Assembly (NCBI GenBank): GCA_963797715.1
Contig: CAWCQS010000015.1
Coordinates: 168,792 to 232,791, forward strand
Length of the DNA stretch: 64,000 nucleotides
Reading direction: 5' to 3'
Source of the DNA: an uncultured Acidobacteriota bacterium
GTDB taxonomy: Bacteria > Acidobacteriota > Vicinamibacteria > Vicinamibacterales > 2-12-FULL-66-21
Shown: positions 37,136 to 55,043 of the stretch, in pieces
Position numbering within the stretch: position 1 is the stretch's first letter
Layout of the letters: each line of letters begins with the position of its first letter
The notes under the pieces: model-generated
Told to the model about the DNA's origin: nothing
Seen by the model: the letters and a program-made list of their open reading frames with translations, nothing else
Databases searched by the model: none
Made by a program: the position numbers and the translations under genes

Positions 37136-37936
37136 TTGCAACGCTGCTCGTTGCCTACAATCTTCGACGTGACCCAAGTCTCCCCTGGACACTACGCGCA
37201 GAAGCAGCTGCTCAGCCCAAGTGGCCTCGTGCGCTGGAGCCACGGCAGCCGTTTCCGCCTGGCGCGCGAGCTCGTCGCGCCGTTTGCGGGACGCCGGCTC
37301 CTCGACTACGGCTGCGGCGACGGCACATTTCTCTCCCTCGTACTCGATCTCTTTCCAAACGCTGTCGGTGCTGACGTTGCCGCCGACCAGCTCGCTGATT
37401 GTTCCCACCGCTTCAGCAGTGCGCCTGGCGTTCGCTTTCTTCTCACCGACGCCCTCGACGGCCCTGGACACGCCATCCACTACGACGTCGTCGTCTGTAT
37501 GGAAGTGCTGGAGCATTGTCCTGACGACATTCAGTTGGCTGTGCTCGACCGGATCGGTCGCGTGACGATCCCCGGCGGCAGAGTGATCGTCAGCGTTCCG
37601 ATCGAGATTGGTCCGACGTTGGTAGCGAAGCAAACGGCGCGCGCTCTCGTGGCGCTCACAGGCGCTTCGGACTATGCGGCGCGAGAGCGATACCAGTCTG
37701 CTGAGCTGTTGCGTCAGTGCTTCGCGTCGAGTGCGACGGCGATTCCTCGCGAGGAGTACCGGGGCGAAGACGGCTCACGCTTCACGGGTCACAAAGGATT
37801 CAACTGGCGACGGCTGGAACATCGGATCGCAGAGCGGTTCGAGATCGAGCGGCGGCTGTTTTCGCCTGTGCCTTACACTGGCGCATGGCTGAACAGCCAG
37901 GTGTGGTTCGTATGCCGGACACGGCCGAGAACCTGA
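37136..37936 (+). CDS. Class I SAM-dependent methyltransferase
   Basis: RRLLDYGCGDGTFLSLVLD (motif I) and VVVCMEVLEHCPD. TTG start at 37136 (an alternative GTG lies near 37169). Confidence 0.75.
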   Translation: MQRCSLPTIFDVTQVSPGHYAQKQLLSPSGLVRWSHGSRFRLARELVAPFAGRRLLDYGCGDGTFLSLVLDLFPNAVGADVAADQLADCSHRFSSAPGVRFLLTDALDGPGHAIHYDVVVCMEVLEHCPDDIQLAVLDRIGRVTIPGGRVIVSVPIEIGPTLVAKQTARALVALTGASDYAARERYQSAELLRQCFASSATAIPREEYRGEDGSRFTGHKGFNWRRLEHRIAERFEIERRLFSPVPYTGAWLNSQVWFVCRTRPRT

Positions 37937-39030
37937 ACGACGCACTGCTCGCCGAAGCGCTGCGCGGTGCATGCCGGCATGCGCCCGAGCGTTCCGAATG
38001 GCCCGCATTTCTGCACGCGGCCGACAAACACGGTGTTCTTCCGCTCGTGGCTGACGCCGCAGCGGCCGCGCGATGGGACACCGATTTTCTCGCCGCAATC
38101 AGGCCCGCGGTCGCGGCGCACACCGTGCTGGACATGTTGCGGCAGGGAGAGGTCCGGCGAGTGCTCGCGAGCCTGACCGCTGCCGGCGTCCAGCCTCTGA
38201 TCATCAAAGGCTCGCACCTCGCGTTCACGCACTACCGTTCTCCGGACCGTCGTCCGCGCCTCGATACCGATCTGCTGATTCGCGAGATCGACAAGCCGGC
38301 GCTTACGAGCGCCCTTACGTCTCTTGGATACGAACCCGTGCCGCACGTGACTGGCGAAGTCGCCTTCTCGCAGTTCTCGTACGAGCGCACCGACGAGCGC
38401 GGAACGAGCCATACACTCGATGTCCACTGGCGCATCGCCATTCCAAAAGCCTTCGCCGATCGCCTGACCTACGACGATCTCCGGCAAGATGCGGTGTCCG
38501 TCGCGGCCCTGGGGCCGCATGCTCTTGCACCATCGCCGCCGCTCGCTCTCCTGATTGCCTGTCTGCACCGGACCGCTCACCACGGCACGACGACGAGGCT
38601 GCTGTGGCTGTATGACATCCACCTGCTGTCCGCGTCGCTCTCGGAGGGGGAATGGGAAGTCGTCGTGACGCGCGCCCACCACACGGGTCTCACGCCCGTC
38701 GTCGCCGCCGGTCTCGAGCACGCGGCCGAGCGGTTGGGCACCCAGTTGCCTGCGGCCGTTCTCGAGCAATTGCACGCTGGGGATAGCGACGTCGATGCCG
38801 ACGTCCTGATGTTTCTGGGCGGCACGCCGGCACAAATGCATGTGGCTAGGTCAGACTGGCGGCGGATCCGCGGCGTTCGCAACAGATTGCAGTTTCTGCG
38901 CGAGCACGTCTTTCCGTCGCGGCACTACATGCGACATCGCTACGGTGTCTCGTCTTCGGCGGCGTTGCCGCTTCTCTACGCGCACCGCGCCGTCACCGGA
39001 GCTGTGAAATGGGTGAGGCGGCCGATCTAA
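37912..39030 (+). CDS. Uncharacterised nucleotidyltransferase-family protein (NTP_transf_5-like)
   Basis: Track ORF 37717..39030 is trimmed to ATG at 37912. PRLDTDLLIREID...LGYEP...HTLDVHWRI resembles the DxD...DxH pattern of the PF14907 family. Confidence 0.6.
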   Translation: MPDTAENLNDALLAEALRGACRHAPERSEWPAFLHAADKHGVLPLVADAAAAARWDTDFLAAIRPAVAAHTVLDMLRQGEVRRVLASLTAAGVQPLIIKGSHLAFTHYRSPDRRPRLDTDLLIREIDKPALTSALTSLGYEPVPHVTGEVAFSQFSYERTDERGTSHTLDVHWRIAIPKAFADRLTYDDLRQDAVSVAALGPHALAPSPPLALLIACLHRTAHHGTTTRLLWLYDIHLLSASLSEGEWEVVVTRAHHTGLTPVVAAGLEHAAERLGTQLPAAVLEQLHAGDSDVDADVLMFLGGTPAQMHVARSDWRRIRGVRNRLQFLREHVFPSRHYMRHRYGVSSSAALPLLYAHRAVTGAVKWVRRPI

Positions 39031-39839: not shown

Positions 39840-41183
39840 TCACGCCACGTCGTGGCGTTCGTAGACCACCAGCGCCGCAAGCAGAGCGGCCAGGGCGGCG
39901 TTGGCGGGCATCACGAGGCCGGTCTCCCAAAGGCTCTGGAGCGCCACTGCCGCCAGACCGCAGGCCGCGCCGGCCCTGATCCAGAACAGGCCCGATTGGT
40001 CGCGTGTCAACCGCTCGCGGGCAGAACGAACGAACGCGATGACCGCGAGGACGAACGCCGTTATCAACATCGCGCCGCCTTCCGCCGCGATTTGCAGATA
40101 GTGGTTGTGCGCCTGGTTGAAGTAGACGACTCGCGACGACTGCTGGTAGTAGAACATCGCTCGCTGATAAGTGCCGGCGCCGGTGCCAGTCAGCCAGAAG
40201 TCGCGGATGATGGGCACGGTCTCGCGCCAGATCGTCAAGCGGTTCGCCAAGCCGCTCTGCGCTCCGGCGACGCGTTGACCCAACGCCGGGATATCGGCCC
40301 ACGCAAAGCCGCACACGACGACGAGGGCTGCTGCCAACAGTAGTCGGTTGCGGCGCCGGCGATCGAGGCGATGTCGGCAGAAGATGATGGTTCCGCACGC
40401 CGCGGCGGCGAGCGCGAGCATTCCTGAACGCGACAGCGAGAGGAGCAGCGCGACGAGCATGGTCACGCCCGCCGCCAGCAGCCAGGCCGTTCGCGGATCG
40501 ACTGACGATGCCAGGCGTGCACGCGCGCTGGCGTGCGTCGGCTCGGCCGGCTTCCCCAGGCGCGCCGCAATATAGCCGAGAGAGAGCGGCAGCGCCATGA
40601 TGACCCAGGTCGCGAAGTGGTTTCGGTTGACGAACGGACCAAAGGGAAGCGGTCCCTCGAATTCGGTCCTGAATCGCCAGTAGATGTCACGTCCGGCCGT
40701 CGCTGCCTGCGCGATCGCCAGCAGCGAGACGGCAAAACCCAGCGCCACGATCATGCGGACCGTCTGCCGGACTCCACCCCGGCGAAACCGGCCGCGGGCT
40801 ATCAAAAACGTCGCGATGGCTCCGGCCATTACGATCCACGCCCAAGCGGTATCCGTTCGACTGAGCGTCAAGGCGCGAAAGCCTGCGTCTGTGCTCAACT
40901 GAATCGAGAGCGCACGGCTCACCGCCACGGCGTGTGGTGACAGCATCGCCACAAGCGCAGCTGGCAAAGGAATGAGCTGGACGGTGACAATCGCGAGCAG
41001 GCCGAGAAGCGCTCGATCGACGGCACCGCCAAGGCGTGACCGTTCGAATGCCGCCAGCGCGAGACAGGTCAGGCCAAAGGCGGTTGCCGTCGTTGCCGAC
41101 CGCCCGCCAAACGCGACGAGTGGCCAAGCCACGAGCACGACCAGCGCGATAACCCGCAGCCGTCGCGAGCGATCGGACCCCAC
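39840..41183 (-). CDS. O-antigen ligase/polymerase family (Wzy_C-type) membrane protein
   Basis: Trimmed to the GTG at 41183-41181, one base after the upstream TGA. Polytopic. NQAHNHYLQIAAEGG is typical of the Wzy_C loop. Confidence 0.75.
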   Translation of the reverse strand: MGSDRSRRLRVIALVVLVAWPLVAFGGRSATTATAFGLTCLALAAFERSRLGGAVDRALLGLLAIVTVQLIPLPAALVAMLSPHAVAVSRALSIQLSTDAGFRALTLSRTDTAWAWIVMAGAIATFLIARGRFRRGGVRQTVRMIVALGFAVSLLAIAQAATAGRDIYWRFRTEFEGPLPFGPFVNRNHFATWVIMALPLSLGYIAARLGKPAEPTHASARARLASSVDPRTAWLLAAGVTMLVALLLSLSRSGMLALAAAACGTIIFCRHRLDRRRRNRLLLAAALVVVCGFAWADIPALGQRVAGAQSGLANRLTIWRETVPIIRDFWLTGTGAGTYQRAMFYYQQSSRVVYFNQAHNHYLQIAAEGGAMLITAFVLAVIAFVRSARERLTRDQSGLFWIRAGAACGLAAVALQSLWETGLVMPANAALAALLAALVVYERHDVA

Positions 41184-41184
41184 T

Positions 41185-43461
41185 TCAGGCAGTCTTCTTG
41201 CCGCTGGTGCCGCTGCCGTAATAGTTCTGGTAGTGGTAGCCGTAGTAGCGTGAGTAGTAGTACTTGTTGCGATCGAAATCGACACGGTTGAGCACGGCGC
41301 CGATCGACTTCGCCTTGCCTGCGCCGAGCGTTTCGATCGCGCGCTCAGCGTGCACGCGCCGCGTCATCTCCGAACCGATCACGAAGACGACGCCTGATAC
41401 CGCTCTTGCAACGATGACGGCATCCGTCACCGCCAATATGGGCGGCGTGTCGATGATCACCCAGTCAAACGGACCCGATCGCAGGTTGGCGAGCAGCGCG
41501 TTCATGCGCTCGGAGGACAGCAGCTCCGATGGATTCGGTGGGATCAGGCCGGCAGTGATGACGAACAGGTTGGGCTCACTGGTTTTCTGCACGGCTTCCC
41601 GCACGCGCGCCTGACCGACGAGGAGATGCGAGAGGCCGATCTCGTTCTTTGCGCCGATGACGGTATGCAGGCCGGGCCGGCGCATATCGGCGTCGACCAG
41701 CAGGACGCGTGAGCCGCCGAGCGCCAGGACCAACCCGAGATTGCACGCCGTCGTCGTCTTGCCCTCGAGCGGCTGGCTGCTCGTGACTCCGATGACTCGC
41801 GGCCCTTCCGACCTGCTGGTAAAGACGAGAGAAGTCCGCAGCGATCGAAACGCTTCGCCGAAATCGTGAGGCACCGGCTCCGAGAGCAGCGGCGCGCGCT
41901 TGTCCCTTACTGACGGCACGAGGCCAAGGAGCGGCAGTCGCAGCTTGCCGGTGACGTCATCCGGCGTTTTCACGGTGTCGTCCAGGTACTCCATCCCGAA
42001 CGCGAGGCCAAGCGCCACCAGCAACCCGGCAAGGAGCGCGGTGAACCAGTCGCGACGAGCGTTGGGCGAGAACGGCGCACCCGGCACCTCGGCACGGTCC
42101 ATGACCGTCACGTTGTTCGTCCGGCTGTTGCTGATAACGCGCAGTTCCTTCTGTTGCTGCAGGAGCGACTGATACACGAGCCGGTTGGTCTCGGCCTGAC
42201 GCTGCAGCACCAGATAGCCGCCGCTCTTGCGGTCGAGATCCATGGCCGCACCCTTCTGCGACTCGAGCTGCCCGGCGTAGCTCCGTTCCTCTATTGCTGC
42301 CGCTTCATACTCGTTGCGGGCCGATTCGATGACGCGCGTGCGTTGCGCGACGAGGGCGGCGCGCGCGCTTTCGATCTGCCCCTCGACCTTGATGAGATCC
42401 GGATGTCCCGGCAGGTACCGTTGCGAGAGCCGCGACTTGTCCGCCATCAAGTCGTTCAGGCGCGTCTTGGCTTCAATCACGCCGGGATTGGCAGCAATCA
42501 CCGGGAACGCGTCTGCGGCGTCGCTCTTGGGGTCGACCGACTTCACCTGGCTGTAGGCGGCTTCCTTCTGTAACCGCGTGGTCCGCGCTCGTGTCGCCGT
42601 GTCGTTGAGCGTATTCAGCCGCGAGACGACGATGTTCTGGCGATCTTCGAGCGACAGCGCATTCTGCTGCTCGCGGTACTTCGCCATCGCCGTTTCGGCT
42701 TCGGTGACTTTCTTTTCCTGCTTCACGACCTCGTCGCTCAGCCACACGAGGTTCTTGTTGATCGTCTCGAGCCGAAGGTCGAGGTTCTGCTGCGCGTACT
42801 CTTCGGCAAGCGTGGTCGCTGCAAGCGCCGCGAACTCCGGGCTCGATGACGTGTAGATGACTTCGACGAGACGCGTCGCCTTCTCTGGCACGATGTCGAC
42901 GCCACCGAGGAACTGGCTGATGAGGCCGCTCTCGACTGCGCTCTCGTCCGCGGCGGGTTTCTCGATTGTGTGCTGGTTCTTCGCTCCCGAGACCATGCTC
43001 CGCACAGACGTGCCGATCGCCTTGCGCACCTCGCGCACCGCGCCCAGCGGGCCGCGGCTCTGCGGCGCGCTGCCGTTGAAGAGCGGGTGATTCTGCAATT
43101 GCAGCCGGCGAACGACGCGCTGGGCCAGACTGCGGCTGCGCAAAATGCTGTACTGGGTGTTGTAGTACTGCTCCGAGTCCTGCCAGAACATCGGATCGTT
43201 CGAGTTGAGATTGCCGACCGCGTTGGTGCGTTCGTCGCGAATCTCGACGCGGGCGCTCGAACGATAGAGCGGAATCTTCGAGTAGGTCTGAAGCATCATC
43301 AGACCGACGACGATGACGAAGGCCGTGCCGGCGACGCGGCGATGTCGGAAGACGGCCGTCAGGCGATCCAGCAGGTGCACCTGCGTCGTCGCTGAAGACG
43401 ACCGCTGGCCCTCGACTGTGTCGGCTGGCCCGGTTGGTTGGAGATCCTGGACGTCGAACAT
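41185..43461 (-). CDS. Polysaccharide co-polymerase / tyrosine autokinase (Wzc/GumC-like)
   Basis: Trimmed to ATG at 43461 (MFDVQDLQ...). It has a Wzz-like N-terminal domain, a long coiled-coil periplasmic region and a second TM helix. The C-terminal P-loop kinase has SSQPLEGKTTTACNLG, LLVDADMRRP and VIIDTPP, followed by the Tyr-rich tail NKYYYSRYYGYHYQNYYG. Confidence 0.9.
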   Translation of the reverse strand: MFDVQDLQPTGPADTVEGQRSSSATTQVHLLDRLTAVFRHRRVAGTAFVIVVGLMMLQTYSKIPLYRSSARVEIRDERTNAVGNLNSNDPMFWQDSEQYYNTQYSILRSRSLAQRVVRRLQLQNHPLFNGSAPQSRGPLGAVREVRKAIGTSVRSMVSGAKNQHTIEKPAADESAVESGLISQFLGGVDIVPEKATRLVEVIYTSSSPEFAALAATTLAEEYAQQNLDLRLETINKNLVWLSDEVVKQEKKVTEAETAMAKYREQQNALSLEDRQNIVVSRLNTLNDTATRARTTRLQKEAAYSQVKSVDPKSDAADAFPVIAANPGVIEAKTRLNDLMADKSRLSQRYLPGHPDLIKVEGQIESARAALVAQRTRVIESARNEYEAAAIEERSYAGQLESQKGAAMDLDRKSGGYLVLQRQAETNRLVYQSLLQQQKELRVISNSRTNNVTVMDRAEVPGAPFSPNARRDWFTALLAGLLVALGLAFGMEYLDDTVKTPDDVTGKLRLPLLGLVPSVRDKRAPLLSEPVPHDFGEAFRSLRTSLVFTSRSEGPRVIGVTSSQPLEGKTTTACNLGLVLALGGSRVLLVDADMRRPGLHTVIGAKNEIGLSHLLVGQARVREAVQKTSEPNLFVITAGLIPPNPSELLSSERMNALLANLRSGPFDWVIIDTPPILAVTDAVIVARAVSGVVFVIGSEMTRRVHAERAIETLGAGKAKSIGAVLNRVDFDRNKYYYSRYYGYHYQNYYGSGTSGKKTA

Positions 43462-43475
43462 GAGTGCGTCAGCGT

Positions 43476-43971
43476 CTACTGACCGCTCGCGGGACTCCCG
43501 TTCGATCCCACTGCGGTCACGCCGAGCGTTGACGCGGCAATGATTGCCGCAGCAGCGGCGTTGCCGAAGAAGCCCGCAACCCACGGCGTTTTCGAGCTCA
43601 GCCGGACGAGGGTGGTCACCTGCCCACCAGCGGTGACGCCGAAAAGATCACCGATCGCGAGAACTCTCTCGTCGGCGGACAGGAGCTCGACGACATAGGC
43701 GCCGGGTTCGGCGCGTTCGAACCGGAAGCGGCCGTCCGCATCACTGACGGTGCGCGCGACGCCGCGGCCTGTGTTGACGCTGCGGAGGCGAATCCGCGCT
43801 TGAGGGTACGGTTGAGAATCGCCCTTCCAGGCGCCGCCGATCACGACGCCGACGGTCGTGGTTCCCACCGGCAGCCTGCGGCTTCGCTGGTGTCTGTGCC
43901 GTTGCGGGCAGGGTGACCAGTAGCAACGCGGCGACGGCCACCATCGCACGACTCCCCGTGGCGCGGAACAT
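43476..43971 (-). pseudogene. Carboxypeptidase-regulatory-like (CarboxypepD_reg) domain protein, signal peptide in a different frame
   Basis: The frame of 43741..43971 gives MFRATGSRAMVAVAALLLVTLPATAQTPAKPQAAG (a signal peptide). The frame of 43476..43949 gives ...TTTVGVVIGGAWKGDSQPYPQARIRLRSVNTGRGVARTVSDADGRFRFERAEPGAYVVEL. The junction is at about 43860-43870. Alternatively this is an intact CDS from the GTG at 43868 that lacks a signal peptide. Confidence 0.5.
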
Positions 43972-44320
43972 GGATACTCCCCAGAAGCGCTCCGGGCCGG
44001 CCCCGGCGGCGCCCCAATCGCCAGTTGTCAGACGGTTTCAATCTTGTAATGTAGACCAGGATGCCGGCAGGAACAACCTGGAATCAACTTCTTATGTAGC
44101 AAAGATCTGGCCGGCTTCCGAGCGGTTGCCACGCAGGGATGGCCGCGTGCGGAATCGACTCGCAAGCTGTTCCGAGATGGACCAGTTGATCACGTTTCGC
44201 GTGCTACAATCCCTCGCTCTCGAGCGGTCGGCGTGGCCGATCGTGCGCGAGATTTCGCACCCGCGCCCGGCGTCGGCGCCGATAGCTGACCCCATCCGGG
44301 AGCGACATGAGCCCAGACCA

Positions 44321-45163
44321 ATGAGCCGTGACCTCGATGCGCTGACCTCTTCGACGCTCAAGCATCTCCGCGAGCACTGGTGGGACGATGCCTTCACGGC
44401 GTTTCTCGAGGAGACCCTGCGTCCGCGGCCGGGGAAGCGGATCCTCGACGTCGGCTGCGGAACCGGAACCGCCGAAATCAGCCTTGCGCGTCTGCGTTTG
44501 TCGCAGATGCACCTCTTCGGGGTGGATCTTGTGACCGAGCGCGTGCGCGAGGCGCACGCGGCAACTCGAGGCATCAACGTGCGGGTCGGCTATGCGGCTG
44601 CGGATGCGTGCCGGCTGCCGTTTGCCGCCAACTCGTTCGACTCGACGTATTGCGTTGCCGTGCTGCAACACATCCGCGATCTGTCTGGCGGGCTGGCCGA
44701 AATCGCGCGCGTGACGCGTCCCGGCGGACGGGTGCTCATCGTCGAGCCTGACAACGCCGCACGCTATTGGTTCAGCTCGGTGCAGAGCGGGATGGAAGCC
44801 TTCGAGATCAGCCGGCGCTTTTTCGGCGGGCTGCTGTCAGTCCGCGGCGAGTCGCCGGCCGCTGCGGTCGGACCGCTCGTCCCTGGACTTCTCGCCGCGA
44901 GCGGCGTCGAACCCGTCTCGGTCCGGCTCTTCCCGGTATCGGTCGCGCATCTTGGCGTGCCGCCGCCGACGTTCTGGGAGTCGCGCCGAACCACTGTTCG
45001 TAGTGTCATCGCCAAGGCGCCAGACGAATCGCTGCGGCGCCTCGGCGCCGACTTCCTCAAGGCGATCGATCAGTACGCTCGCGACGCGTCAACGGCCGGT
45101 TCTGCCTTCGTCGAAATCCAGAACACGATGCTCTTCGCAACGGTCGGACAGCGGGCGGAGTGA
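44321..45163 (+). CDS. Class I SAM-dependent methyltransferase (Methyltransf_11-like)
   Basis: Track ORF 43913..45163. The likely start is ATG at 44321 (alternative ATG at 44177). Contains KRILDVGCGTGTAEISL...RPGGRVLIVEPD. Confidence 0.75.
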   Translation: MSRDLDALTSSTLKHLREHWWDDAFTAFLEETLRPRPGKRILDVGCGTGTAEISLARLRLSQMHLFGVDLVTERVREAHAATRGINVRVGYAAADACRLPFAANSFDSTYCVAVLQHIRDLSGGLAEIARVTRPGGRVLIVEPDNAARYWFSSVQSGMEAFEISRRFFGGLLSVRGESPAAAVGPLVPGLLAASGVEPVSVRLFPVSVAHLGVPPPTFWESRRTTVRSVIAKAPDESLRRLGADFLKAIDQYARDASTAGSAFVEIQNTMLFATVGQRAE

Positions 45164-45957
45164 CGCGTCAACCTGCACAGAAAGCCACGAGTGGCACCGA
45201 GGGCTGGGACCAGTACGCGCCGTTCTACGATTGGGAAAACGCGCAGACCGTCGCGCGGCGTGACATCGCGTTCTGGCAACGGCTGGCCGTCGCCAACGAT
45301 GGGCCGGTGCTCGAGCTCGGCTGCGGTACGGGCCGTGTCGCGGTTCCGGTTGTCAAGGCCGGCGCACAACTCGTCGGGATTGACCTGTCGGCGCCCATGC
45401 TCGAGCGGGCGCACCGGCGGCTTCGGCGGGCGCGCCTGAGCGATCGCGCCCTCCTCGTGCGCGGTGACATCCGGCACCTGCCGTTTCGATCGCGACGCGG
45501 GTTCGGTCTGGTGATGGCGCCGTACGGGATCTTGCAGTCTCTGACCCGCGAGCGCGATCTCGTCGCCACTCTGGCGTCAGTGTCCCGCGTCGTACGCCCA
45601 GGTGGCTTGTTCGGCGTCGACCTCGTGCCCGATCTGCCGCGTTGGAGCGAATACAGACGGCGTACGAGCCTGCGAGGGAAGAAAGGTGCGGCGACGACTG
45701 TGACGCTCGTCGAGTCGGTCCGTCAGGATCGCCGGCGCAAGCTCACAATCTTCGATCAGGAGTACATCGAGCGGCGTGGACGCGAGCGTACCGTTCATCG
45801 CTTTGCGCTGACCTTCCGCACGTTGTCGGTGCCGCAGATGGTCACACGAGTCGAGGCGGCAGGTTTTCGGATTCAGGCCATCCTCGGCGACTATCAGGGC
45901 GGACCGTGGGACGAGCGCGCCGATGTCTGGATCATCCTGGCGGAGAAGAAGCTGTGA
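45160..45957 (+). CDS. Class I SAM-dependent methyltransferase
   Basis: VLELGCGTGRVAVPVVKAGAQLVGIDLSAPMLERA. The start overlaps the upstream stop. Confidence 0.8.
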   Translation: MTRQPAQKATSGTEGWDQYAPFYDWENAQTVARRDIAFWQRLAVANDGPVLELGCGTGRVAVPVVKAGAQLVGIDLSAPMLERAHRRLRRARLSDRALLVRGDIRHLPFRSRRGFGLVMAPYGILQSLTRERDLVATLASVSRVVRPGGLFGVDLVPDLPRWSEYRRRTSLRGKKGAATTVTLVESVRQDRRRKLTIFDQEYIERRGRERTVHRFALTFRTLSVPQMVTRVEAAGFRIQAILGDYQGGPWDERADVWIILAEKKL

Positions 45958-45959
45958 AC

Positions 45960-46232
45960 ATGTGGAAGCACAGCCCTGACGTCGTCTATCGCGATCTCGA
46001 GGGCGAGGCCGTGATCCTCGATCTCGCCTCGGGCACGTACTTCGGATTGAATGAAGTCGGCACTCGGGTCTGGCGGATGATTGATGAAGGACGCGACGCG
46101 GCCGAGATCGTCGATATCGTCGCTACGGAGTATCAGGCCGATCGCGGGACCATCGCCCAGGACGTCGCGCGGCTGCTCAACGACCTCAGTGCCCGCCGTC
46201 TCATAGTCGCGGGCGGGGCCGAGCCGGTGTGA
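45960..46232 (+). CDS. PqqD-family protein (lasso peptide B1 / RiPP recognition element)
   Basis: Track ORF 45642..46232 is trimmed to ATG at 45960 (a GTG at 45954 overlaps the upstream TGA). 90 aa: MWKHSPDVVYRDLEGEAVILDLASGTYFGLNEVGTRVWRMIDEGRDAAEIVDIV..., a typical PqqD pattern. Confidence 0.8.
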   Translation: MWKHSPDVVYRDLEGEAVILDLASGTYFGLNEVGTRVWRMIDEGRDAAEIVDIVATEYQADRGTIAQDVARLLNDLSARRLIVAGGAEPV

Positions 46233-48092
46233 GCGCGATCGCGGGCTGCTGCTGGCTCGACGGCCGGCCCGCCCGCGCCGATGACCTCAGTACGTCCATG
46301 GGCGCCGCTCGGCACCGGGCGCGCCTGCCGTTCCGCGTGAGGTGCGCCGGGCCGGTCGTTCTCGCGTACGCCCCCGGCGACGCTGCCGACTGCCAGCCAT
46401 TTCACGACGCATCCTCTCGTACGACGCTCGTCATCGACGGCCACATCGATAACGTCGACGAGATGGCAATGGCGCTCGCCACCGAACGATCGGCGCTGGC
46501 CGTCGTCCTCTCTGCCTGGCGCCGCTGGGGGCTCGACTGTGGCTCGCATCTTCTCGGTGATTTTGTCGTCGTCGTGAGCGAGGAGACGACGCGGCGTGTC
46601 GTCTGCATCCGTGATTCCATGGGGCAGCGTCCGCTGTTTTATTGCACCGGACCGCACGGAGTCGTGTTCGCATCCGAGGTGCAACAGGTTGTGCGGCACG
46701 TCGCCGCGAGCACTGGCGTACCGCCGGTGTTCAACGACGCCATGATTGCTGAGTACCTGTCGGGCGAGCCCCAGACCGTCGCAGAAACGCTCTGGCGGGG
46801 TGTGTATCGATTGCCGCCTGCGCATTCGCTCGAGATCACGAGCCGCGGTACGGTGGTGCGGCGTTACTGGGATTTCGATCCCGAGGCGCGGGTGGAGTAC
46901 GCTCACGCCGGGGAGTATGCCGAGCATTTCCGCGACGTCTTCACTCGCGCTGTCGATTGTCGAGTGCGCGGCACAGGCCCTGTTGGTGTCTTCCTGAGCG
47001 GAGGCATCGACTCCTCCTCGGTGGCGGGTCTGGCGCAGGCCGCTCAACGCGCGGCCGGTCGCGAAGCGATCCAGGCATTCACGGTCGCCTTTCCGGGACG
47101 GCCATGCGACGAAACCGTCTATAGCCAGGCGGTCGTCGACAAATGGAGTTTGCCGGCCACCCGTATCGATGCCGCGCCTCCGTCCAGAGAGACACTGGCG
47201 CTCCGGGCAGCGCAAGACCTCGATATCCCGCCGAGTCCCACCAGCCTCAGTTGCCGATCCGCTCCGTGCACGCGCCGCCTCGGCGGGAGTGCGAGTCCTG
47301 TTGACTGGCTACGGCGGCGACGATTTCTTCACGGGAGATCCCTCGTCGCGGCTCGATCTGCTGCGCGAGGGCCGCGTCGTAGCGTGGGGCCGGGCCATGA
47401 TCAGCCCAGTGTTGTCTCACCGCGTACGAGGTCTGCTGAGGCCTGTGGTGGGCGCGCGTCCGCCTCGCCGTCGGTGGATTCGGCCCGAGTTTGTGTCACG
47501 TGTCGCGCTGGAGGACCGGCTGCGCCCTCGTCCAGCGCTGCCGTTTGCGACGCCCGAACAGCGGGAGAGTCATCGTTCGGCCACCAGCCTCACGCAGATC
47601 CTTGGCGATGAGGTGGAGGACCGGACCGCACACGCGTCCGGCATCGATCAGCGCCACCCCTTCTACGACCGGCGAGTCGCCGAGTACGGTCTCGCCCTGC
47701 CCGTCGGCCAGCGCTCGAACGGGCGCGAGATCAAGATCGTGATTCGTCGTGCCCTCGCCGACTATCTGCCGCCACTGGTGGCGGCCCGGACAACGCTCGC
47801 TGACAAGGCCGAGTTCTCGTCCACCTATGTCGAAGCGATCGAAGCGTTCGGCGGCAGGGGGGCCTTCACCCGGCTGCGCTCCGAGGATGCGGGATGGGTC
47901 GACGGCCGCGCCGTCTGTCGCATGTATGAGGACATGATTCAGCTTTACACTCGTGGCAGGGCCGCGTACATTGCTCTCACCGAGCCGCTGTGGGCGGTGA
48001 TCGCGCTTGAACTATGGCTCGACGCGTGCGAGCGGTTCGCGTGTCGCGGGTCCGATGAGCGTGCGGATCTGAACACTGGGGGATTGACGTGA
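46229..48092 (+). pseudogene. Asparagine-synthetase-like lasso peptide cyclase (C protein), split between two frames
   Basis: The N-terminal frame (46229...) has MSAIAGCCWLDG... and VGVFLSGGIDSSSVAG (PP-loop SGGxDS). It becomes Arg/Ser-rich nonsense after ...AAQDLDIPPSPTSL. The frame of 47169..48092 continues ...VADPLRARAASAGVRVLLTGYGGDDFFTG...IDQRHPFYDRRVAEY.... The junction is at about 47240-47255. Confidence 0.8.
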
Positions 48093-48286
48093 ACGACGAG
48101 CGCGACGCCAACGAGCGGGACGGAGGCAGCCCCGCGTCGAACGCGGTGCAGAACGATGTCCGGGCCGCGCGGCGCCCCTATCTCGCGCCGGAGCTGATCG
48201 AGTACGGAACCGTTGCCAAGCTGACACAGACTGGTGGCGGCTCGGTCAAGGACTTCGGCAACATGATGACAATGGCAGGTCTGTGA
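48089..48286 (+). CDS. Candidate lasso peptide precursor (A peptide)
   Basis: 65-aa ORF whose start and stop overlap the flanking C and B2 genes (GTGA at both ends). The leader contains YLAPEL...KLTQ, that is YxxPxL with Thr at the position matching -2. The predicted core is TGGGSVKDFGNMMTMAGL, with Asp at position 8. Confidence 0.65.
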   Translation: MNDERDANERDGGSPASNAVQNDVRAARRPYLAPELIEYGTVAKLTQTGGGSVKDFGNMMTMAGL

Positions 48287-48765
48287 GCGCCGTTCGCGGC
48301 TGGACGCTTCCAGCCGCTGCGGTCGTGCTGACGTGTGCGAAGGTGTGGGTCCGAGTAGCGCCAGGACGGGCCGTGCGATGGGGAGCGCGGATTGGCCAGG
48401 GACACGGCTCGCACTCCCGGCGGAGATCTCTCACGGGACGCGCTGCATGCGAGGCACGTCCGACAGTCGATGCCCGGATCCGAAATCTCACTGCCGCGGT
48501 GACTGCGCTCGGCGCGCGGCGACCATTCTCCGCGACCTGCCTCGAGCAGAGCGTGGCGCTGGTGATGCTCCTTTCCATGGTCCGGATTCCCTCGCATCTG
48601 ATCGTCGGTGTGACCCGCGCCGAGTCAACCGTTCGCGCGCATGCCTGGGTCGAATCCCGCGGCGAGGTCGTGCTCGGAGGATCTCAGGCCGTGGGCCTGC
48701 AGCCGCTCGTCGGAGCGCCCGCCGCTTCGGCTGCCTCCGCGAGTGTTGCCTCGTGTCGCGGGTAA
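48283..48765 (+). CDS. Lasso peptide biosynthesis B2 protein (transglutaminase-core Cys protease)
   Basis: SATCLEQSVALVMLLSMVRIPSHLIVGV...VRAHAWVESRGEVV carries the Cys and His of the Transglut_core3 family. 160 aa. Confidence 0.85.
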   Translation: MSAVRGWTLPAAAVVLTCAKVWVRVAPGRAVRWGARIGQGHGSHSRRRSLTGRAACEARPTVDARIRNLTAAVTALGARRPFSATCLEQSVALVMLLSMVRIPSHLIVGVTRAESTVRAHAWVESRGEVVLGGSQAVGLQPLVGAPAASAASASVASCRG

Positions 48766-49889
48766 TCGACGAACACCGACGCTACCTCCGCGATCGCCAT
48801 CGCCTGTCGGCCTACGATCGCGCCATCCGCGAGGTCGTAACGCGCGGTGATGTCGTCGTCGATCTCGCCTCGGGGACGGGGATCCTCGGCCTGCTGGCGT
48901 GTCGTGCGGGTGCGTCGCGCGTCTACGCGATTGAAGAGGGTGGCATCGTCGGGGTGGCACGGCAGATTGCCAAAGCCAATGGGTTCGAACGCGTCATCTC
49001 GCCCATCCGCGGCTACTCGCGTCACGTGACGCTTCCCGAGCGCGCGGACGTCGTCGTCTGCGATCAGATCGGCGGCTTCGGCCTGGAAGCCGACATCCTG
49101 GAGCGCGCGTACGAGGTCAGGACACGGTTTCTGCGGCCCGGGGGCACATTCGTTCCGCGCGGGCTCGAGCTCATGATCGCGGCCGTCGAGCATCGGGGTC
49201 TGCACGACCGCCTCCGTTTTTGGAAAACGCGGCCCGCCGACTTCGACGTCTCCGCGGCCCTCGATATGGCCGCCAACACCGGCTATCCCGCTCGCCTTCG
49301 CCCGGAACATCTCCTCTCGCCTGCGCTCCCGGCGGCGACAATCGATCTGCTGGTCGAGCAGTCCCTGCCGCTTCATGTCCGGGGCACACTCCACATATCG
49401 CGCGCTGGGGTGCTGCACGGGATTGGAGGATGGTTCGTCGCCCTGCTCTCGCCGGGGGTCACAATGACCAACTCTCCCTTGTCGGTCGAGCGCATCAACC
49501 GCCGGCCAATCTTCTTTCCGATTGAGGACGGAGTCCCGGTCGAGGCCGGCGCCACGATCGACGTGTCGATGCGGATCCGGCCAGCCGACACAATGTACGC
49601 CTGGGAGGTGCGCGTCGCGCCAACGTCTGGTCCGGTGCTGACGTTCCGTCACACCACGCTTCGCGGCATGTTGCTCGTGCGCGACGACCTCGAGCTCACC
49701 AACCCGGCGCATCGTCCGGCGCTGACGCCCGCGGGCGTTGCGCGGATGGCTGTTCTGCGTCTGTGTGATAGCCGCCACACGCTCGGCGAGATCGAACAGC
49801 TCGTCTTTGAGGCGCATCGCGATCTGTTCGCGTCGCCGGCGGAAGCCGCGATGTTCGTCGCCGAAGTCGTGACGCGATACGGCCGGTGA
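48753..49889 (+). CDS. PRMT-fold (protein arginine N-methyltransferase-like) SAM methyltransferase with C-terminal PqqD-like extension
   Basis: Track ORF 48333..49889 is trimmed to the in-frame GTG at 48753. HRRYLRDRHRLSAYDRAI, VVVDLASGTGILGLLACRAGASRVYAIEE and VVVCDQIGGFGLEADILE align with PRMT pre-I, motif I and the double-E region. A beta-barrel-like middle follows. The last ~65 aa, LTPAGVARMAVLRLCDSRHTLGEIEQLVFEAH...AAMFVAEVV, look PqqD/RRE-like. Confidence 0.7.
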   Translation: MSRVIDEHRRYLRDRHRLSAYDRAIREVVTRGDVVVDLASGTGILGLLACRAGASRVYAIEEGGIVGVARQIAKANGFERVISPIRGYSRHVTLPERADVVVCDQIGGFGLEADILERAYEVRTRFLRPGGTFVPRGLELMIAAVEHRGLHDRLRFWKTRPADFDVSAALDMAANTGYPARLRPEHLLSPALPAATIDLLVEQSLPLHVRGTLHISRAGVLHGIGGWFVALLSPGVTMTNSPLSVERINRRPIFFPIEDGVPVEAGATIDVSMRIRPADTMYAWEVRVAPTSGPVLTFRHTTLRGMLLVRDDLELTNPAHRPALTPAGVARMAVLRLCDSRHTLGEIEQLVFEAHRDLFASPAEAAMFVAEVVTRYGR

Positions 49890-49908: not shown

Positions 49909-50868
49909 ATGCGCTACCGGCTTCATGGTGTGACGGTGATGAGCGAGCTCGCACTGCCGGGCGTGCGGAAGTCCTCGTCGCCCGACCAGATCGCAATCGA
50001 GGTTGCCGGCCCTCCCCACGCATCGCCGATCGACGCGTTCCATTATTGGCGCCTGAAGGGAATGCCGCGAAGTCGTCCGTGGCTCTCGATCGCGCGTGCT
50101 GAGGGCGGCTATCTGTTGCGGTTCCCGGAGCTGGCCGACTTCGACGTGTCTGCCGGCGGCGATCGAATCGTGTGCCGGCCACGTCCGAGACTGGCCGCCT
50201 CGACGCTCGTCCACCTGCTGCTCGATCAGGTGCTTCCGCTTGCGCTCAGCAGGAGAGGTCAGCTCGTTCTGCACGCGAGCGCGGTCCACATCCCCCGTCT
50301 CGGTGCCGTTGCATTTGTCGGTTCGACCGGAAGCGGCAAATCGACGCTGGCTGCCGCCTTGGGGCTGGACGGTTGCCAGGTCATCACCGACGATTGCCTG
50401 GCGATCGACGTCGGTGTGCCGCCGCTCGCGCTTCCTGGTTATCCCGGATTGCGGCTGTGGCGCGACGCCGCTCGAAGCCTGCAGATCGAACGGCACACGG
50501 ACGGTCCAGTGGCGCACTACACTTCAAAGCGGCGGTTCCAGCGAGACGCGGTTCGCTTTCGATCGGCCACGAGCCCACTGGCGGCGGTCTTCGTGTTGGG
50601 CCGGCGTCGGACCAGCGGCGCGACGCGCGCCCATCCGTTCGCCTCACGCGACGGGCTGATGGCGCTCGCATCCTTCGTTCACGTGCTCGATGTCGAAGAC
50701 CGCCGTCAACTGGCCGAAATGTTCCGAGGGCTGACCTCGCTCGTCACCCGTGTCCCGGTCGCACGGCTCAACCTTCGCGACGGCCGGCGGCAGGTCCGCG
50801 ATGCCGCGACCGAAGTCCTGGCCATTGCCCGGTCGCTGGCTGCGCCGGCGATGATCAACCGCAAATGA
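49909..50868 (+). CDS. HPr-kinase-related (HprK C-terminal-domain-like) P-loop kinase
   Basis: LHASAVHIPRLGAVAFVGSTGSGKSTLAAAL...ITDDCLAID matches the HprK-like P-loop core. It is the last gene of the lasso operon. Confidence 0.7.
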   Translation: MRYRLHGVTVMSELALPGVRKSSSPDQIAIEVAGPPHASPIDAFHYWRLKGMPRSRPWLSIARAEGGYLLRFPELADFDVSAGGDRIVCRPRPRLAASTLVHLLLDQVLPLALSRRGQLVLHASAVHIPRLGAVAFVGSTGSGKSTLAAALGLDGCQVITDDCLAIDVGVPPLALPGYPGLRLWRDAARSLQIERHTDGPVAHYTSKRRFQRDAVRFRSATSPLAAVFVLGRRRTSGATRAHPFASRDGLMALASFVHVLDVEDRRQLAEMFRGLTSLVTRVPVARLNLRDGRRQVRDAATEVLAIARSLAAPAMINRK

Positions 50869-50962
50869 GTCAAGCAGTTACCGAAAGACGCGCGTCGAAT
50901 GACGGCGCCGATTCGTGATAGGATCGTCCGTCTTTTTCTCACTGTTTCTGGAGTTTCGACCC

Positions 50963-51712
50963 ATGTCTGGCCATTCCAAGTGGCACACAATCAAGCACAA
51001 GAAGGGCGCCGCCGACGCGAAGCGCGGCAAGGTGTTCACTCGGATCATCAAGGAACTGAGCGTCGCCGCGCGAGCCGGCGGCGGCGATCCCGATTCGAAT
51101 CCGCGGCTTCGGACGATCATTGCCGAGGCCAAGGCGGTGAACATGCCCGCCGACAACATCAAGCGCGCGATTCAGCGCGGCACGGGTGAGCTGCCCGGTG
51201 TGTCGTACGAGGAAGTGACCTACGAAGCGTACGGGCCTGGCGGCGCCGCGCTCATCATCGAAGCGCTCACCGACAACCGCAACCGGACTGTCGGCGAGCT
51301 GCGGCACACGCTGACGAAGTACGGCGGGAACCTCGGCGAAACCAACAGCGTCGCCTGGATGTTCCACAAGAAAGGCTACATCGTCGTCGAGAAAGCCAAG
51401 GCGAGCGAGGACGCGCTGATGAACGCAGCGCTCGATGCCGGCGCCGACGATCTGCGCGACGATGGTGACAGCTGGGAAGTGGTATCGCCGCCGGAAGCAT
51501 TCCAGCAGGTGCTCGACGCCGTCAAGGCGCTCGGTCTCGAGCCGGCCGCGGCGGAAATCGCAATGCTGCCGCAGAACTACGTCAAGCTCGAAGGCAAGCC
51601 CGCGCAGCAGATGGTCAAGCTGATGGACGTGCTCGAAGACCACGAGGATTCGAAGAAGGTGTGGTCGAACGCCGACATCGAAGAGAAGGAGATCGAGGCC
51701 TCGTTGGCGTGA
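50963..51712 (+). CDS. yebC: YebC/PmpR-family DNA-binding transcriptional regulator
   Basis: MSGHSKWHTIKHKKGAADAKRGKVFTRIIKEL... is a diagnostic N-terminus. The track ORF is trimmed to ATG at 50963. Confidence 0.95.
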   Translation: MSGHSKWHTIKHKKGAADAKRGKVFTRIIKELSVAARAGGGDPDSNPRLRTIIAEAKAVNMPADNIKRAIQRGTGELPGVSYEEVTYEAYGPGGAALIIEALTDNRNRTVGELRHTLTKYGGNLGETNSVAWMFHKKGYIVVEKAKASEDALMNAALDAGADDLRDDGDSWEVVSPPEAFQQVLDAVKALGLEPAAAEIAMLPQNYVKLEGKPAQQMVKLMDVLEDHEDSKKVWSNADIEEKEIEASLA

Positions 51713-52257
51713 GGATCTTCGGCATCGATCCAGGCTCCGCCCGCACCGGTTACGGCTGCGTCGAGCGGATCGGCAGCCGACACGCCCTCGTCATCTGCGG
51801 CTCGCTCTCGGGCCCCCCGCGCGCGCCGTTCCAGGACAAGCTCAACGCGATTCATGACGGTCTGACGGCGCTGTTGCGCCGTCACCAGCCTGACTGCGTG
51901 GCAATCGAAGACATCTTCCATGCCCGCAACGTTCGCAGCGCGTTGAAGCTGGGCGAGGCGCGCGGCGTCGCGCTGCTCGCCGCCGCCGAGGCCGGCGTGC
52001 CTGTCGCCTCCTATGCGCCTGCGGCGATCAAGCGCGCCGTCGTCGGTTACGGTCGTGCCGAGAAGCATCAGGTGCAACACATGGTCAAGCTGCTGCTCGG
52101 ACTGCAGCAGCCACCGACGCCGCACGACGTCGCCGACGCGCTGGCAGTAGCGATTTGTCACCTGCAGGCGTCGACGGGCGGCGTGTCGGAGCGCCTGCGA
52201 GGCGCTGACGTCCGGCCGCAGTCGTCGCTGCGATCGTGGCGGCAGTATCGACCATGA
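51709..52257 (+). CDS. ruvC: Crossover junction endodeoxyribonuclease RuvC
   Basis: The GTG at 51709 overlaps the yebC TGA. VRIFGIDPGSARTGYG...VAIEDIF...ADALAVAICH. Confidence 0.9.
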   Translation: MRIFGIDPGSARTGYGCVERIGSRHALVICGSLSGPPRAPFQDKLNAIHDGLTALLRRHQPDCVAIEDIFHARNVRSALKLGEARGVALLAAAEAGVPVASYAPAAIKRAVVGYGRAEKHQVQHMVKLLLGLQQPPTPHDVADALAVAICHLQASTGGVSERLRGADVRPQSSLRSWRQYRP

Positions 52258-52393
52258 TCTCAGCTCAGAGCGGCCGTGCTGAAATGTTGTTCGAATGTGT
52301 CCCGAGCGTGAATCAGCAGCGCCTGCGGCCGCGTCCGAGCGCGAATGCGCGAGGACGCCGCGAGCGGGGGTGGGGCCCCGCGAGCTCTGATCG

Positions 52394-53002
52394 ATGATCG
52401 CGCAGCTTCGTGGGACGTTGGTCGAGAAGCACCCAAGCCGCGTCGTCGTTGATGTCGCCGGCGTGGGCTATGACGTGCAGGTGCCGCTCTCGACGTTCTA
52501 CGGGCTGGGCGAGCCGGGTGAGACGGTGGCGCTTCGGATCCACACGCACGTGCGCGAGGATCAGATTGCGCTCTTCGGGTTCAGCACCTCGCTCGAGCAG
52601 GATCTCTTCGAGCGGTTGATTGCGATCAGCGGCATCGGGCCGAAGTTGGGGCTGTCGGTGCTCTCGGGGATCGAGCCGGCCGATCTCGTGCGCGCGATTC
52701 GGGTGCAGGATGTTGCCCGGCTCACCAAGATTCCGGGTGTGGGAAAGAAGACGGCCGAGCGCATTGGGCTGGAGCTGAAGGATCGGTTGCCGCACGTCAC
52801 AATCGAGGCTCCGGGGCCAGCATCAGCATCCGGCCGGCCTGAAGATCAACTGCGCGACGATCTGCTCTCAGCGCTCGTGAACCTCGGCTATCAGGCGCCC
52901 GCCGCACAGAAGGCCATCGACAGCGTGCTGAAGGCCACGCCGGCTGCGGGATTCGAACAGGCATTGCGTGAAGCGCTCCGCTCGATGATGAAGGGGGCAT
53001 GA
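52394..53002 (+). CDS. ruvA: Holliday junction branch migration complex subunit RuvA
   Basis: [31 protein letters not shown]...[18 protein letters not shown]...[12 protein letters not shown]. Confidence 0.95.
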
Positions 53003-54015
53003 CCGACAACCGTCTCGTAACCGCCGCCAAGGCCGAAGACGACGCCCAGTACGAAGCCGGCCTGCGGCCGCGCACGCTCGACGACTACATCGGACAGGAT
53101 CGCGTGCGCGAGAACCTGCAGGTGTCGATTGCGGCGGCGAAGCAGCGTGGTGAGGCGCTCGACCACGTGCTGCTCTACGGTCCGCCGGGTCTCGGCAAGA
53201 CGACGCTGGCCTATGTCATCGCCAACGAGCTCGGTGTCGCGATCCGATCGACCGCCGGGCCGGTGATCGAGAAAGCGGGCGACCTCGCCGCGATCCTCAC
53301 CAATCTGCAGGAGCGCGACGTGCTCTTCATCGACGAAGTGCACCGCATGCAGCCGACGATCGAGGAGACGCTGTATCCGGCGATGGAGGACTATGTCCTC
53401 GACATCATGATCGGCCAGGGTCCCGGTGCCCGGTCGGTCAAGATGCCGCTCCAGCCGTATACGCTCGTGGGCGCGACGACGCGCACCGGCTTGCTGACGT
53501 CGCCGCTGCGCGCCCGCTTCGGCATCGTCCACCGTCTCGACTACTACGACGATGGCGACATCGAGGAGATCGTGCGACGGTCGGCCCGCATCCTCGGCGT
53601 GCCGATCGACGACGATGCGGCGGTGGAGATTGCGCGCCGCTCGCGCGGTACGCCGCGCGTCGCCAACCGGCTGCTACGCCGCGTTCGAGACTATGCGCAG
53701 GTACGCGCCGACGGGCATATCACCGGGTCGGTTGCCGACGGTGCGCTGCGTCTGCTCGAGGTCGATGCGCGTGGATTCGACGAGATCGATCGCCGTCTGC
53801 TGCGAACGATAATCGACAAGTTCGGCGGCGGACCAGTCGGCGTCGGGACGTTGGCCGCGGCGATGAGCGAAGAGAAAGACACGATCGAAGAAATCTACGA
53901 ACCGTTTCTCATCCAGATTGGGTTCCTCGACCGGACGCCGAGAGGTCGCGTTGCCACCGCGCGTGCCTACGAGTACTTCGGCCTGAACGCCCCAGCAAAG
54001 GATCGCTTGTGGTAG
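52999..54015 (+). CDS. ruvB: Holliday junction DNA helicase RuvB
   Basis: [19 protein letters not shown]...[14 protein letters not shown]...LFIDEVHR.... Confidence 0.95.
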
Positions 54016-54053
54016 AGAGTCAGCGACAGATTGCCGGCATGGCCGGCGCCACC

Positions 54054-55043
54054 ATGCGGCCGGTGAAGATTGCCGGCTTGTCGACCTACGTGCCGCCGCG
54101 GGTGTTGACGAACCTCGATCTCGAAAAAATGGTCGAGACGACGAACGAGTGGATTCTGCAACGCACCGGCATCCGCGAGCGCCACATCGTCGATCCCGGG
54201 GTCGCCACGTCTGACCTGGCGAAAGAAGCAGCGCTCGGCGCAATGCAGCAGGCTGGCGTCGACCCGACCGAGATTGGCTTCATTGTCGTCGGCACGACCA
54301 CGCCGGATACGATTTTCCCGAGCACCGCCTGCGTGCTTCAGGACAAGATCGGAGCGACCTCGGCCTGGGGGTTCGACCTCGGCGCCGCCTGCTCAGGGTT
54401 CACCTACGCGCTGACGACCGGCATGCAGATGGTCGCGAGCGGCGCGCACGATCACGCGCTCGTCGTCGGCGCCGACGTGATGTCGAGCATCATCGACTAC
54501 ACCGACCGCGCGACGTGCATTCTCTTTGGCGACGGCGCCGGCGCGGTCGTGCTGTCGGTCGCCGAACCGGGCGAGCCGTCGATCATCGGGTTCTCGCACG
54601 AGATCGATGGCAGCGGCGGACCATCGTTGTGCATGCCGGCCGGCGGCAGCCGCGTACCGGCTTCGCACGAAACCGTCGACCAGCGGCTGCATTACGTCAA
54701 GCAGGATGGCCAGGCCGTCTTCAAGTTTGCCGTGAGAAAGACCGAGGAGATCTGCCAGCGCGTGCTGCACAAGTACGGCGTCGACCCGTCGGAGGTCGAC
54801 CTCTTCGTCTCGCATCAGGCGAACCGCCGCATCATCCAGGCCGCGGCCGACCGCCTCGGCCTCCCCGAGTGCAAGGTCGTGATCAACCTCGAGCGATTCG
54901 GCAACACGACCGCCGCCACGATTCCCCTGGCGCTCGCCGACGCAGTCGCGGAGAAGCGAATCAAGAAGGGCAGCCTGGTGCTGATGACTTCCGTCGGCGC
55001 CGGCTTCACCGTTGGCGCCGTGCTGCTGCGCTGGGGATTGTAG
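54054..55043 (+). CDS. fabH: Beta-ketoacyl-ACP synthase III
   Basis: MRPVKIAGLSTYVPPRVLTNLDLEKMVETTNEWILQRTGIRERH. Active-site GAACSGFTYAL, HQANRRI and FGNTTAATIP. The start is chosen at ATG 54054 (upstream in-frame ATGs at 54039 and 54009 are possible). Confidence 0.9.
   Translation: MRPVKIAGLSTYVPPRVLTNLDLEKMVETTNEWILQRTGIRERHIVDPGVATSDLAKEAALGAMQQAGVDPTEIGFIVVGTTTPDTIFPSTACVLQDKIGATSAWGFDLGAACSGFTYALTTGMQMVASGAHDHALVVGADVMSSIIDYTDRATCILFGDGAGAVVLSVAEPGEPSIIGFSHEIDGSGGPSLCMPAGGSRVPASHETVDQRLHYVKQDGQAVFKFAVRKTEEICQRVLHKYGVDPSEVDLFVSHQANRRIIQAAADRLGLPECKVVINLERFGNTTAATIPLALADAVAEKRIKKGSLVLMTSVGAGFTVGAVLLRWGL

Follow-up and report, generated by a model that had tools for sequence, protein, structure and literature searches.

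The window analysed here is a 64,000-nucleotide stretch of the genome of an uncultured soil Acidobacteriota bacterium, probably of the order Vicinamibacterales (assembly GCA_963797715.1, contig CAWCQS010000015.1, positions 168,792 to 232,791). It contains a lasso peptide gene cluster on the + strand in the order B1-C-A-B2, which encodes a protein of the RiPP recognition element (RRE) type (RiPP, a peptide synthesized by the ribosome and then modified post-translationally), a lasso cyclase, a precursor peptide and a leader peptidase. These genes follow one another with overlapping stop and start codons. The GTG start of the precursor gene overlaps the cyclase stop (GTGA), its own stop overlaps the B2 start (again GTGA), and a Shine-Dalgarno-like GGGGGA run lies 5 nt 5' of its GTG. 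The precursor gene is an open reading frame (ORF) at 48089-48286, present as a single copy within the 64-kb window. A sequence-only reading of this DNA had singled out the same ORF, and its translation is exactly the peptide quoted there; a database entry (P0001) matches it with 100% identity over 100% of its length. We conclude that the ORF is a genuine, conserved precursor of an RRE-dependent class II lasso peptide.

The assignment as a lasso precursor follows from a match to the NCBIfam model NF033521 (lasso_leader_L3), from the slot between the cyclase and B2 genes with B1 upstream, and from the same gene order in relatives. The NF033521 match scores 23.2 bits against a curated cut-off of 19, with a model that spans the leader alone and is silent on core, ring and tailoring. 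Because of this match, the existence of homologues, the fixed C-A-B2 position and the G+C content by codon position (0.68/0.48/0.83 over the whole ORF, like that of housekeeping genes in the window), the ORF is a coding gene and not a chance frame. It is a short ORF beside an RRE protein (B1), a transglutaminase-like B2 and an asparagine synthetase-like cyclase. Taking the cut after Q47, it has a YxxPxL motif about 17 residues before cleavage and Thr(-2); where lasso cores carry Asp or Glu at position 7, 8 or 9 and a tail of at least five residues, it has Asp55 at core position 8 and a tail of 10. Its first core residue is not one of the small ones (Gly, or Ala/Ser/Cys) that characterised lasso peptides favour, which is a tendency and no strict rule. 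A Pfam scan of the peptide gave no match. NF033528 (lasso_cyano) was rejected as an identity, its 23 bits being below the cut-off of 33, and a match to TIGR04227 was dismissed as spurious.

Alignment of homologous ORFs, the check proposed in the sequence-only reading, shows that the precursor is conserved. It has 43 close homologues in a protein database clustered at 90%, and an exhaustive HMMER profile search of a library clustered at 50% returned 964 family representatives (E<=1e-3). Residue counts are given here for the close homologues, for the 143 representatives listed of the 964, aligned on YxxPxL, or for both sets together (186 motif-aligned members). Invariant in all 43 close homologues are Y31, P34, L36, the run E38-Y-G-T-V-A-K-L-T-Q47, G49, G50 and D55. 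At residue 48 there are 42 Thr and a single Ala, and residue 52 is Ser or Thr in every one. Counting from the motif Tyr in the 143 listed representatives, Y+15 is Thr in 142 and Y+16 is Gln in 117, and Y+17 is the first variable position (T 46, G 39, S 31, A 12, N 8 and seven others). Eight residues past Y+16 stands an Asp (109) or a Glu (22) in 131 of the 143, the acceptor lying nine residues past Y+16 in about nine. Y+18 is Gly in 149 of the 186 motif-aligned members. A pattern scan of genome contigs with EYGTVAKLT found four loci, each with Thr at core position 1.

This large family, whose members belong to uncultured Acidobacteriota of soil, is uncharacterised: our literature searches on lasso peptides found no paper on this precursor family and no experimentally studied member. 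One homologue from a Vicinamibacterales metagenome-assembled genome (P0043) is already named "lasso RiPP family leader peptide-containing protein" at NCBI. Two hits of the profile search have unusual layouts. P0125 has two tandem leader-like copies within one ORF (…YQEPQVIDYGTVAELTKKPGAKKPYHEPQVIDYGTVAELTKKPGS…), and P0060 is a 1351-aa protein with 12 tandem, weakly leader-like repeats (ARRPYIYARLLDSGVIAVLYQASGGGH) that is probably spurious or an unrelated repeat protein.

Table 1. Features of the lasso peptide locus, in coordinates of the window. Codons of the key precursor residues begin at 48179 (Y31), 48224 (T46), 48227 (Q47), 48230 (T48), 48242 (S52) and 48251 (D55). Fractions refer to close homologues (/43) and listed representatives (/143).
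Feature	Coordinates	Strand	Evidence and remarks
NTP_transf_5 nucleotidyltransferase	37717..39030	+	PF14907 3.3e-38
Class-I S-adenosylmethionine (SAM) methyltransferase (first)	44321-45163	+	Directly upstream in cluster; domain matches
Class-I SAM methyltransferase (second), resembles daptide methyltransferases	45160-45957	+	Adjoins B1 on 5' side
B1, PqqD-like RRE, 90 aa, conserved YFGLN Tyr	45960..46232	+	PF05402 1.5e-19; NF033530, NF033536
Lasso cyclase C, full length, one frameshift	46229..48092	+	GATase_7 + Asn_synthase; NF033535 7.7e-64
Lasso precursor gene A	48089..48286	+	GTG start, 65 codons + TGA; NF033521; 43 close homologues
Predicted leader, 47 aa	48089..48229	+	First 27 codons variable but in coding frame; R28-Q47 conserved
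YLAPEL, YxxPxL B1/RRE-binding motif, -17 to -12	48179..48196	+	Y31, P34, L36 invariant 43/43
Thr46-Gln47, predicted Thr(-2)/Gln(-1), scissile bond after Gln47	48224..48229	+	T 43/43, 142/143; Q 43/43, 117/143
Predicted 18-aa core TGGGSVKDFGNMMTMAGL	48230..48283	+	Alignment counts; Thr1 48230-48232, Ser5 48242-48244, Asp8 acceptor 48251-48253
B2 leader peptidase, transglutaminase-like Cys protease	48283..48765	+	PF13471 1.8e-20; NF033537 65.2 bits vs cut-off 33; exact start uncertain
PRMT-like SAM methyltransferase, candidate tailoring enzyme	~48753..49889	+	PRMT_C, PrmA, TRM5 matches; start taken from tblastn match to L003 orthologue
HprK-related lasso-precursor kinase homologue	49909..50868	+	Weak TIGR04352 + TIGR04355 matches; BsfK similarity

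The sequence-only reading applied a YxxPxL/Thr(-2) ruler, quoting for it the Tyr(-17) spacing of LarA, and so placed the cut after Gln47, the core as TGGGSVKDFGNMMTMAGL and the ring between Thr1 and Asp8. This is the best-supported register, and we consider cleavage after Gln47 with a predicted Thr1-Asp8 ring to be probable. With the cut there, the landmarks of the leader fall at Y(-17), P(-14), L(-12), G40(-8) and T46(-2), all invariant in the close homologues, and thus share their register with the mapped sites of BsfA and LarA. In BsfA, cleavage at IIR/GTSGNEVD (the slash marking the cut) has been proven by B1/B2 digestion and tandem mass spectrometry, and its authors used the -17/-14/-12 ruler (PMC10368454); the role of the YxxPxL motif in B1/RRE binding is described in the same work. 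LarA is cleaved at A26/G27, its Thr(-2) is essential and its Gly(-8) is conserved across phyla (PMC4960549). When the peptides are anchored on the motif Tyr, T48 of the window aligns to G1 of BsfA and D55 to its D8. The B1 protein of the window is 37% identical to BsfB1 and keeps the invariant YFGLN tyrosine, the proposed partner of Thr(-2).

The family itself contains precursors with a canonical T-x/G boundary at this register, Gly standing at Y+17 and a non-Gly residue at Y+18 in 20 of the 143 listed representatives. At locus L009 the precursor reads KLTQ/GSTGSGND and lies in the C-A-B2 order, as in the window. The 190 recovered C-terminal residues of the L009 cyclase are 66% identical to the window cyclase, and the L009 B2 is 45% identical to the window B2. 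Since orthologous enzymes read an identical leader end at the two loci, the same bond is expected to be cut in both. A homologue search with the Gly1-type relative P0053 returned only P0053 itself, but the 1-kb contig that carries it was informative all the same.

Thr at the first core position is non-standard among characterised lasso peptides, as the sequence-only reading held, although it has in silico precedent. According to PMC13632552, a survey on a large scale found all residues but Pro at core position 1, and the same exception, Pro, is the only residue that the cyclase PalC does not take there. Characterised lasso peptides are known to begin with Trp, Tyr, Phe or Glu. Thr1 is therefore non-standard, yet chemically and bioinformatically unsurprising.

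The alternative register has B2 cutting one residue later, after Thr48, which would leave the core GGGSVKDFGNMMTMAGL and a seven-residue Gly1-Asp7 ring. This is unlikely in our judgement, despite several points that speak for it: none of the 43 close homologues departs from Gly49, which is also conserved across the wider family, characterised lasso peptides begin with Gly far more often than with any other residue (PMC7549694; PMC13632552), and seven-residue lasso rings exist (LassoPred text). A cut after Thr48 would break the Thr(-2) rule, as the sequence-only reading had already objected; Gln would then occupy -2 and the invariant Thr would be left unexplained at -3, while Y/P/L would shift to -18/-15/-13 and Gly to -9, off the register of BsfA and LarA. 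It would not spare the family a non-Gly first residue either, since Y+18 is other than Gly in 37 of the 143 listed representatives, and it would turn the L009 peptide into Ser1-Asp7 with Gly(-1) despite the canonical LTQ/G available. Gly at +2 is found in 84% of cases when +1 is not Gly, versus 49% when +1 is Gly (Fisher p=6.5e-5), a bias that we take to mean that Gly2, being flexible, makes up for more bulk at position 1. The known seven-residue rings, those of the xanthomonins, are closed by Glu and are not known to be closed by Asp. Published ring-size or acceptor statistics bearing on Asp7 rings were not found in the literature searched, and ring-length variation in the family does not separate the two registers, the acceptor being at +8 or +9 and never at +7. 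The sequence-only reading further described the 47-aa leader as long and proposed that an internal GTG (Val20, 48146) could give a leader of 28 aa. The leader is indeed at the long end of its family but is normal for it: family leaders concentrate between 35 and 47 aa, 41 being the mode, and the main cluster extends up to 47. An in-frame GTG is present at codon 20, and two database homologues (P0013, P0037) are called with short leaders from MRRPY. The 27 N-terminal codons, however, have the signature of coding sequence (G+C 0.78/0.48/0.93 by codon position; RuvB, 0.71/0.44/0.82), an M-x-D-E-R-D/E motif recurs at the N terminus of close homologues, and it is the upstream GTG that has the GGGGGA run and the overlap with the cyclase stop. 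This overlap is 4 bp in the window and in L003 and about 10 bp in the fragmented gene calls of L001 and L002, and in L004 the precursor starts 21 nt downstream of the cyclase stop. On codon-position G+C, recurrent motif, start overlap and family leader lengths, the internal start was rejected, and translation from it is very improbable.

A different kind of doubt concerns this genome and not the register. The reading frame of the cyclase is broken once, near 47237-47241, a break that the sequence-only reading had not seen: in a tblastn search with the intact 606-aa cyclase of L003, residues 1-337 match in one frame and 334-594 in another, and the switch, caused by a 1-base insertion or a 2-base deletion, falls in a C-rich run (ccc a cc a gcc). 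Either the assembly contains an indel error here, or the peptide is not produced by this strain. It is possible, though we doubt it, that the cluster is decaying here, the cyclase being a pseudogene and the precursor drifting with no lasso peptide made, while the family functions elsewhere. The cyclase is the only split gene among 15 that are syntenic with L003. The window peptide is also alone among the 43 in having Thr at core position 14 (Arg in 36/43) and Gly as its penultimate residue (Cys in 25/43), and in P0002, which is closest to it (92% identical), Arg and Cys stand at those two positions. These differences are not confined to the window, however, as other family members (P0015, P0021) also lack both Arg and Cys. 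Both halves of the cyclase are open, without further stops, and 52-55% identical to the intact orthologue over residues 1-594, and the precursor, B1, B2, kinase and methyltransferase genes are all intact. An assembly indel is equally likely because the related genomes are long-read metagenome-assembled genomes that carry many broken genes; the position of the frameshift in a C-rich run also speaks against decay. Besides the broken cyclase frame, several observations tell against a functional Thr1-Asp8 lasso peptide from this locus: no product has been observed for any family member and the cleavage site is placed by homology, the strongly conserved Gly at Y+18 could itself be the first core residue, the literature searched yielded no characterised lasso peptide with Thr1, the missing Arg14 and penultimate Cys could reflect relaxed selection, and the phosphorylation site discussed below is proposed from conservation alone, the position used in BsfA being an invariant Gly here.

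Cleavage after Gln47 with closure of a Thr1-Asp8 ring thus remains our preferred reading, and homology to known systems suggests how the peptide would be made. B1 would bind the leader through YLAPEL. The HprK-like kinase would probably phosphorylate a ring hydroxyl, the best candidate being Ser/Thr5, before the leader is removed, and the B1/B2 pair would read Thr46 as Thr(-2) and cut after Gln47. The cyclase would then link Thr48 (core 1), through its alpha-amine, with the Asp55 (core 8) side chain, with the 10-residue Met-rich tail, which includes F9, M12, M13, M15 and L18, trapped in the 8-residue ring. Three methyltransferases probably add further marks.

The kinase of the window is 35% identical to BsfK over 112 aa (E=5e-11) and has retained the BsfK motif at each of its eight residues (H, G, G, G, K, S, D, D). 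The cluster thus has the HprK-like kinase of paeninodin-type systems, and its precursor has no C-terminal Ser to serve as phosphorylation site. The sequence-only reading was right that the peptide ends without Ser (...MAGL), an absence for which BsfK offers a precedent: that enzyme phosphorylates Ser3 of the ring on the precursor, with B1 assisting, and uses no C-terminal Ser (PMC10368454). The C-terminal-Ser rule of paeninodin is therefore not universal. Core position 3 of the window peptide is likewise not Ser or Thr but the invariant G50. Core position 5, by comparison, is Ser or Thr in 43 of 43 close homologues and in 110 of the 143 listed representatives, and this conserved residue is the best candidate for phosphorylation.

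The tails of the family are Met-rich (17% Met). Arg-Met is conserved at core positions 14-15, where the window has Thr14, and a Cys-Leu terminus is found in 120 of the 186 motif-aligned members, where the window has Gly17; 124 of the 186 have a single Cys per core. Directly after B2 lies a gene for a methyltransferase resembling protein arginine methyltransferases (PRMT), with a PRMT_C oligomerisation subdomain and a PrmA-like fold, which is syntenic in L001-L004. The conserved tail Arg of the family is a possible target of this enzyme, although the core of the window has no Arg. No paper that connects a lasso peptide with an arginine methyltransferase came up in the literature searches.

Gene order was compared with four loci from related genomes and metagenomes (L001-L004), in two of which, L001 and L002, gene calls are fragmented, and one of which, L004, ends at the PRMT-like gene. 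The named relatives are a Vicinamibacterales metagenome-assembled genome (GCA_035691125.1) and long-read MFD metagenome-assembled genomes labelled "uncultured Acidobacteriota". The shared order is Wzy_C / GNVR tyrosine kinase / methyltransferases / B1 / C / A / B2 / PRMT-like methyltransferase / kinase / yebC / ruvC / ruvA / ruvB / fabH. The C-A-B2 position of the precursor is kept in L003, L004 and L009, which are all the homologous loci with enough flanking sequence, and the order in L001 and L002 is consistent with it even though their cyclase and B2 calls are fragmented. Both upstream methyltransferase genes are syntenic in L002-L004; in L001 the first is called alone. The mechanical ORF of the first (43913-45163) has 416 aa against 280 aa in its orthologues, an excess of about 136 codons, and the gene likely starts at 44321, where homology begins. 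The nucleotidyltransferase at 37717-39030 may be part of the lasso cluster; opposite-strand exopolysaccharide genes lie between the two.

The cluster sits between an exopolysaccharide locus (39840-43584, - strand; Wzy_C-type ligase/polymerase and GNVR tyrosine kinase) and yebC-ruvCAB-fabH (50915-55043, + strand), and it occupies the same site in L001-L004. RiPP clusters do not usually keep such a fixed chromosomal site, which is a hint that this one is inherited vertically. Identity to L003 is 52-55% for the cyclase, 51% for the kinase, 58% for the precursor, 65% for the PRMT-like methyltransferase and 71% for B1; among the neighbours it is 82% for the GNVR kinase, 83% for the first methyltransferase and 87% for YebC and RuvB. 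That the lasso genes are more diverged than their neighbours suggests either fast co-evolution of precursor and enzymes or relaxed selection.

These observations leave the picture of lasso biosynthesis unchanged; they extend a known kind of system and do not introduce a new one, and each oddity flagged in the sequence-only reading is either precedented or typical of the family. Novelty is most likely to be found in the tailoring set and in the Met-rich tail ending in Cys-Leu. Only tentatively would we go further and propose a very large, uncharacterised Acidobacteriota lasso superfamily, of at least 964 clusters at 50% identity, whose macrolactam is routinely formed from Thr, Ser or Asn besides Gly, whose Met-rich tail usually ends in Cys-Leu, and which in the five to six orthologous loci compared, all close to the window, occupies a fixed site between the exopolysaccharide locus and yebC-ruvCAB together with a dedicated set of ring-directed kinase, PRMT-like enzyme and two methyltransferases. 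If the Thr1-Asp8 ring is true, these would be the first natural lasso peptides closed on the amine of a beta-branched Thr, and their cyclases would form a lineage whose natural range at position 1 includes T, S, A, N and G, a property of use in engineering. Since the substrate offers its kinase no C-terminal Ser and no Ser3, the enzyme should bring to light a third regiochemistry of lasso phosphorylation. The PRMT-like and other methyltransferases may likewise add new modifications, and the tailoring set as a whole may install some that are new to lasso peptides, such as a phosphate on ring position 5 or a methyl group on Arg or on the Cys near the C terminus. If the locus is indeed inherited vertically, it and the tail rich in Met and Cys would favour a role in physiology, for instance in signalling or the binding of metal, over a strain-specific antibiotic.

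Among known systems, the bsf cluster of Bradymonas sediminis (PMC10368454) resembles the window in being RRE-dependent, with YxxPxL at -17 to -12, an 8-residue ring closed on Asp8 (predicted in the window), split B1 and B2, an HprK-like kinase and a nucleotidyltransferase, the linkage of the last being a possibility in the window. The bsf kinase targets a hydroxyl in the ring part of its precursor and not a C-terminal Ser; in the window the ring site is a candidate. BsfA differs in having Ile(-2) and Gly1, where the window peptide has Thr(-2) and Thr1, and the Ser3 used by BsfK is an invariant Gly in the window family. The bsf cluster also has no methyltransferases and its gene order is different, A lying between C and B2 in the window.

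LarA (PMC4960549) has Thr(-2), Gly(-8) and an 8-residue ring, as predicted for the window peptide. It differs in its 26-aa leader, in Gly1, for which the G1A variant is not produced, and in its acceptor Glu8, for which E8D is not produced; its cluster is actinobacterial and, unlike that of the window, has neither kinase nor methyltransferases. Paeninodin-type clusters, as described by Zhu et al. 2016 in the citations of PMC10368454 and PMC13352647, have an HprK-like kinase, like the window, and a nucleotidyltransferase, which in the window may belong to the cluster, and phosphorylation takes place on the precursor before leader removal. In these accounts the phosphorylated residue is the C-terminal Ser, whereas the last two residues are Gly-Leu in the window peptide and mostly Cys-Leu in its family. 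Fusilassin and cellulassin (Trp1), halolassin (Tyr1) and the palassoptides (Phe1, Glu1) likewise close their rings on the alpha-amine of a residue other than Gly, Ala, Ser or Cys, with cyclases that tolerate many first residues. None of them has Thr1; unlike the window system they are actinobacterial, with unrelated cores, and come without its set of kinase and methyltransferases.

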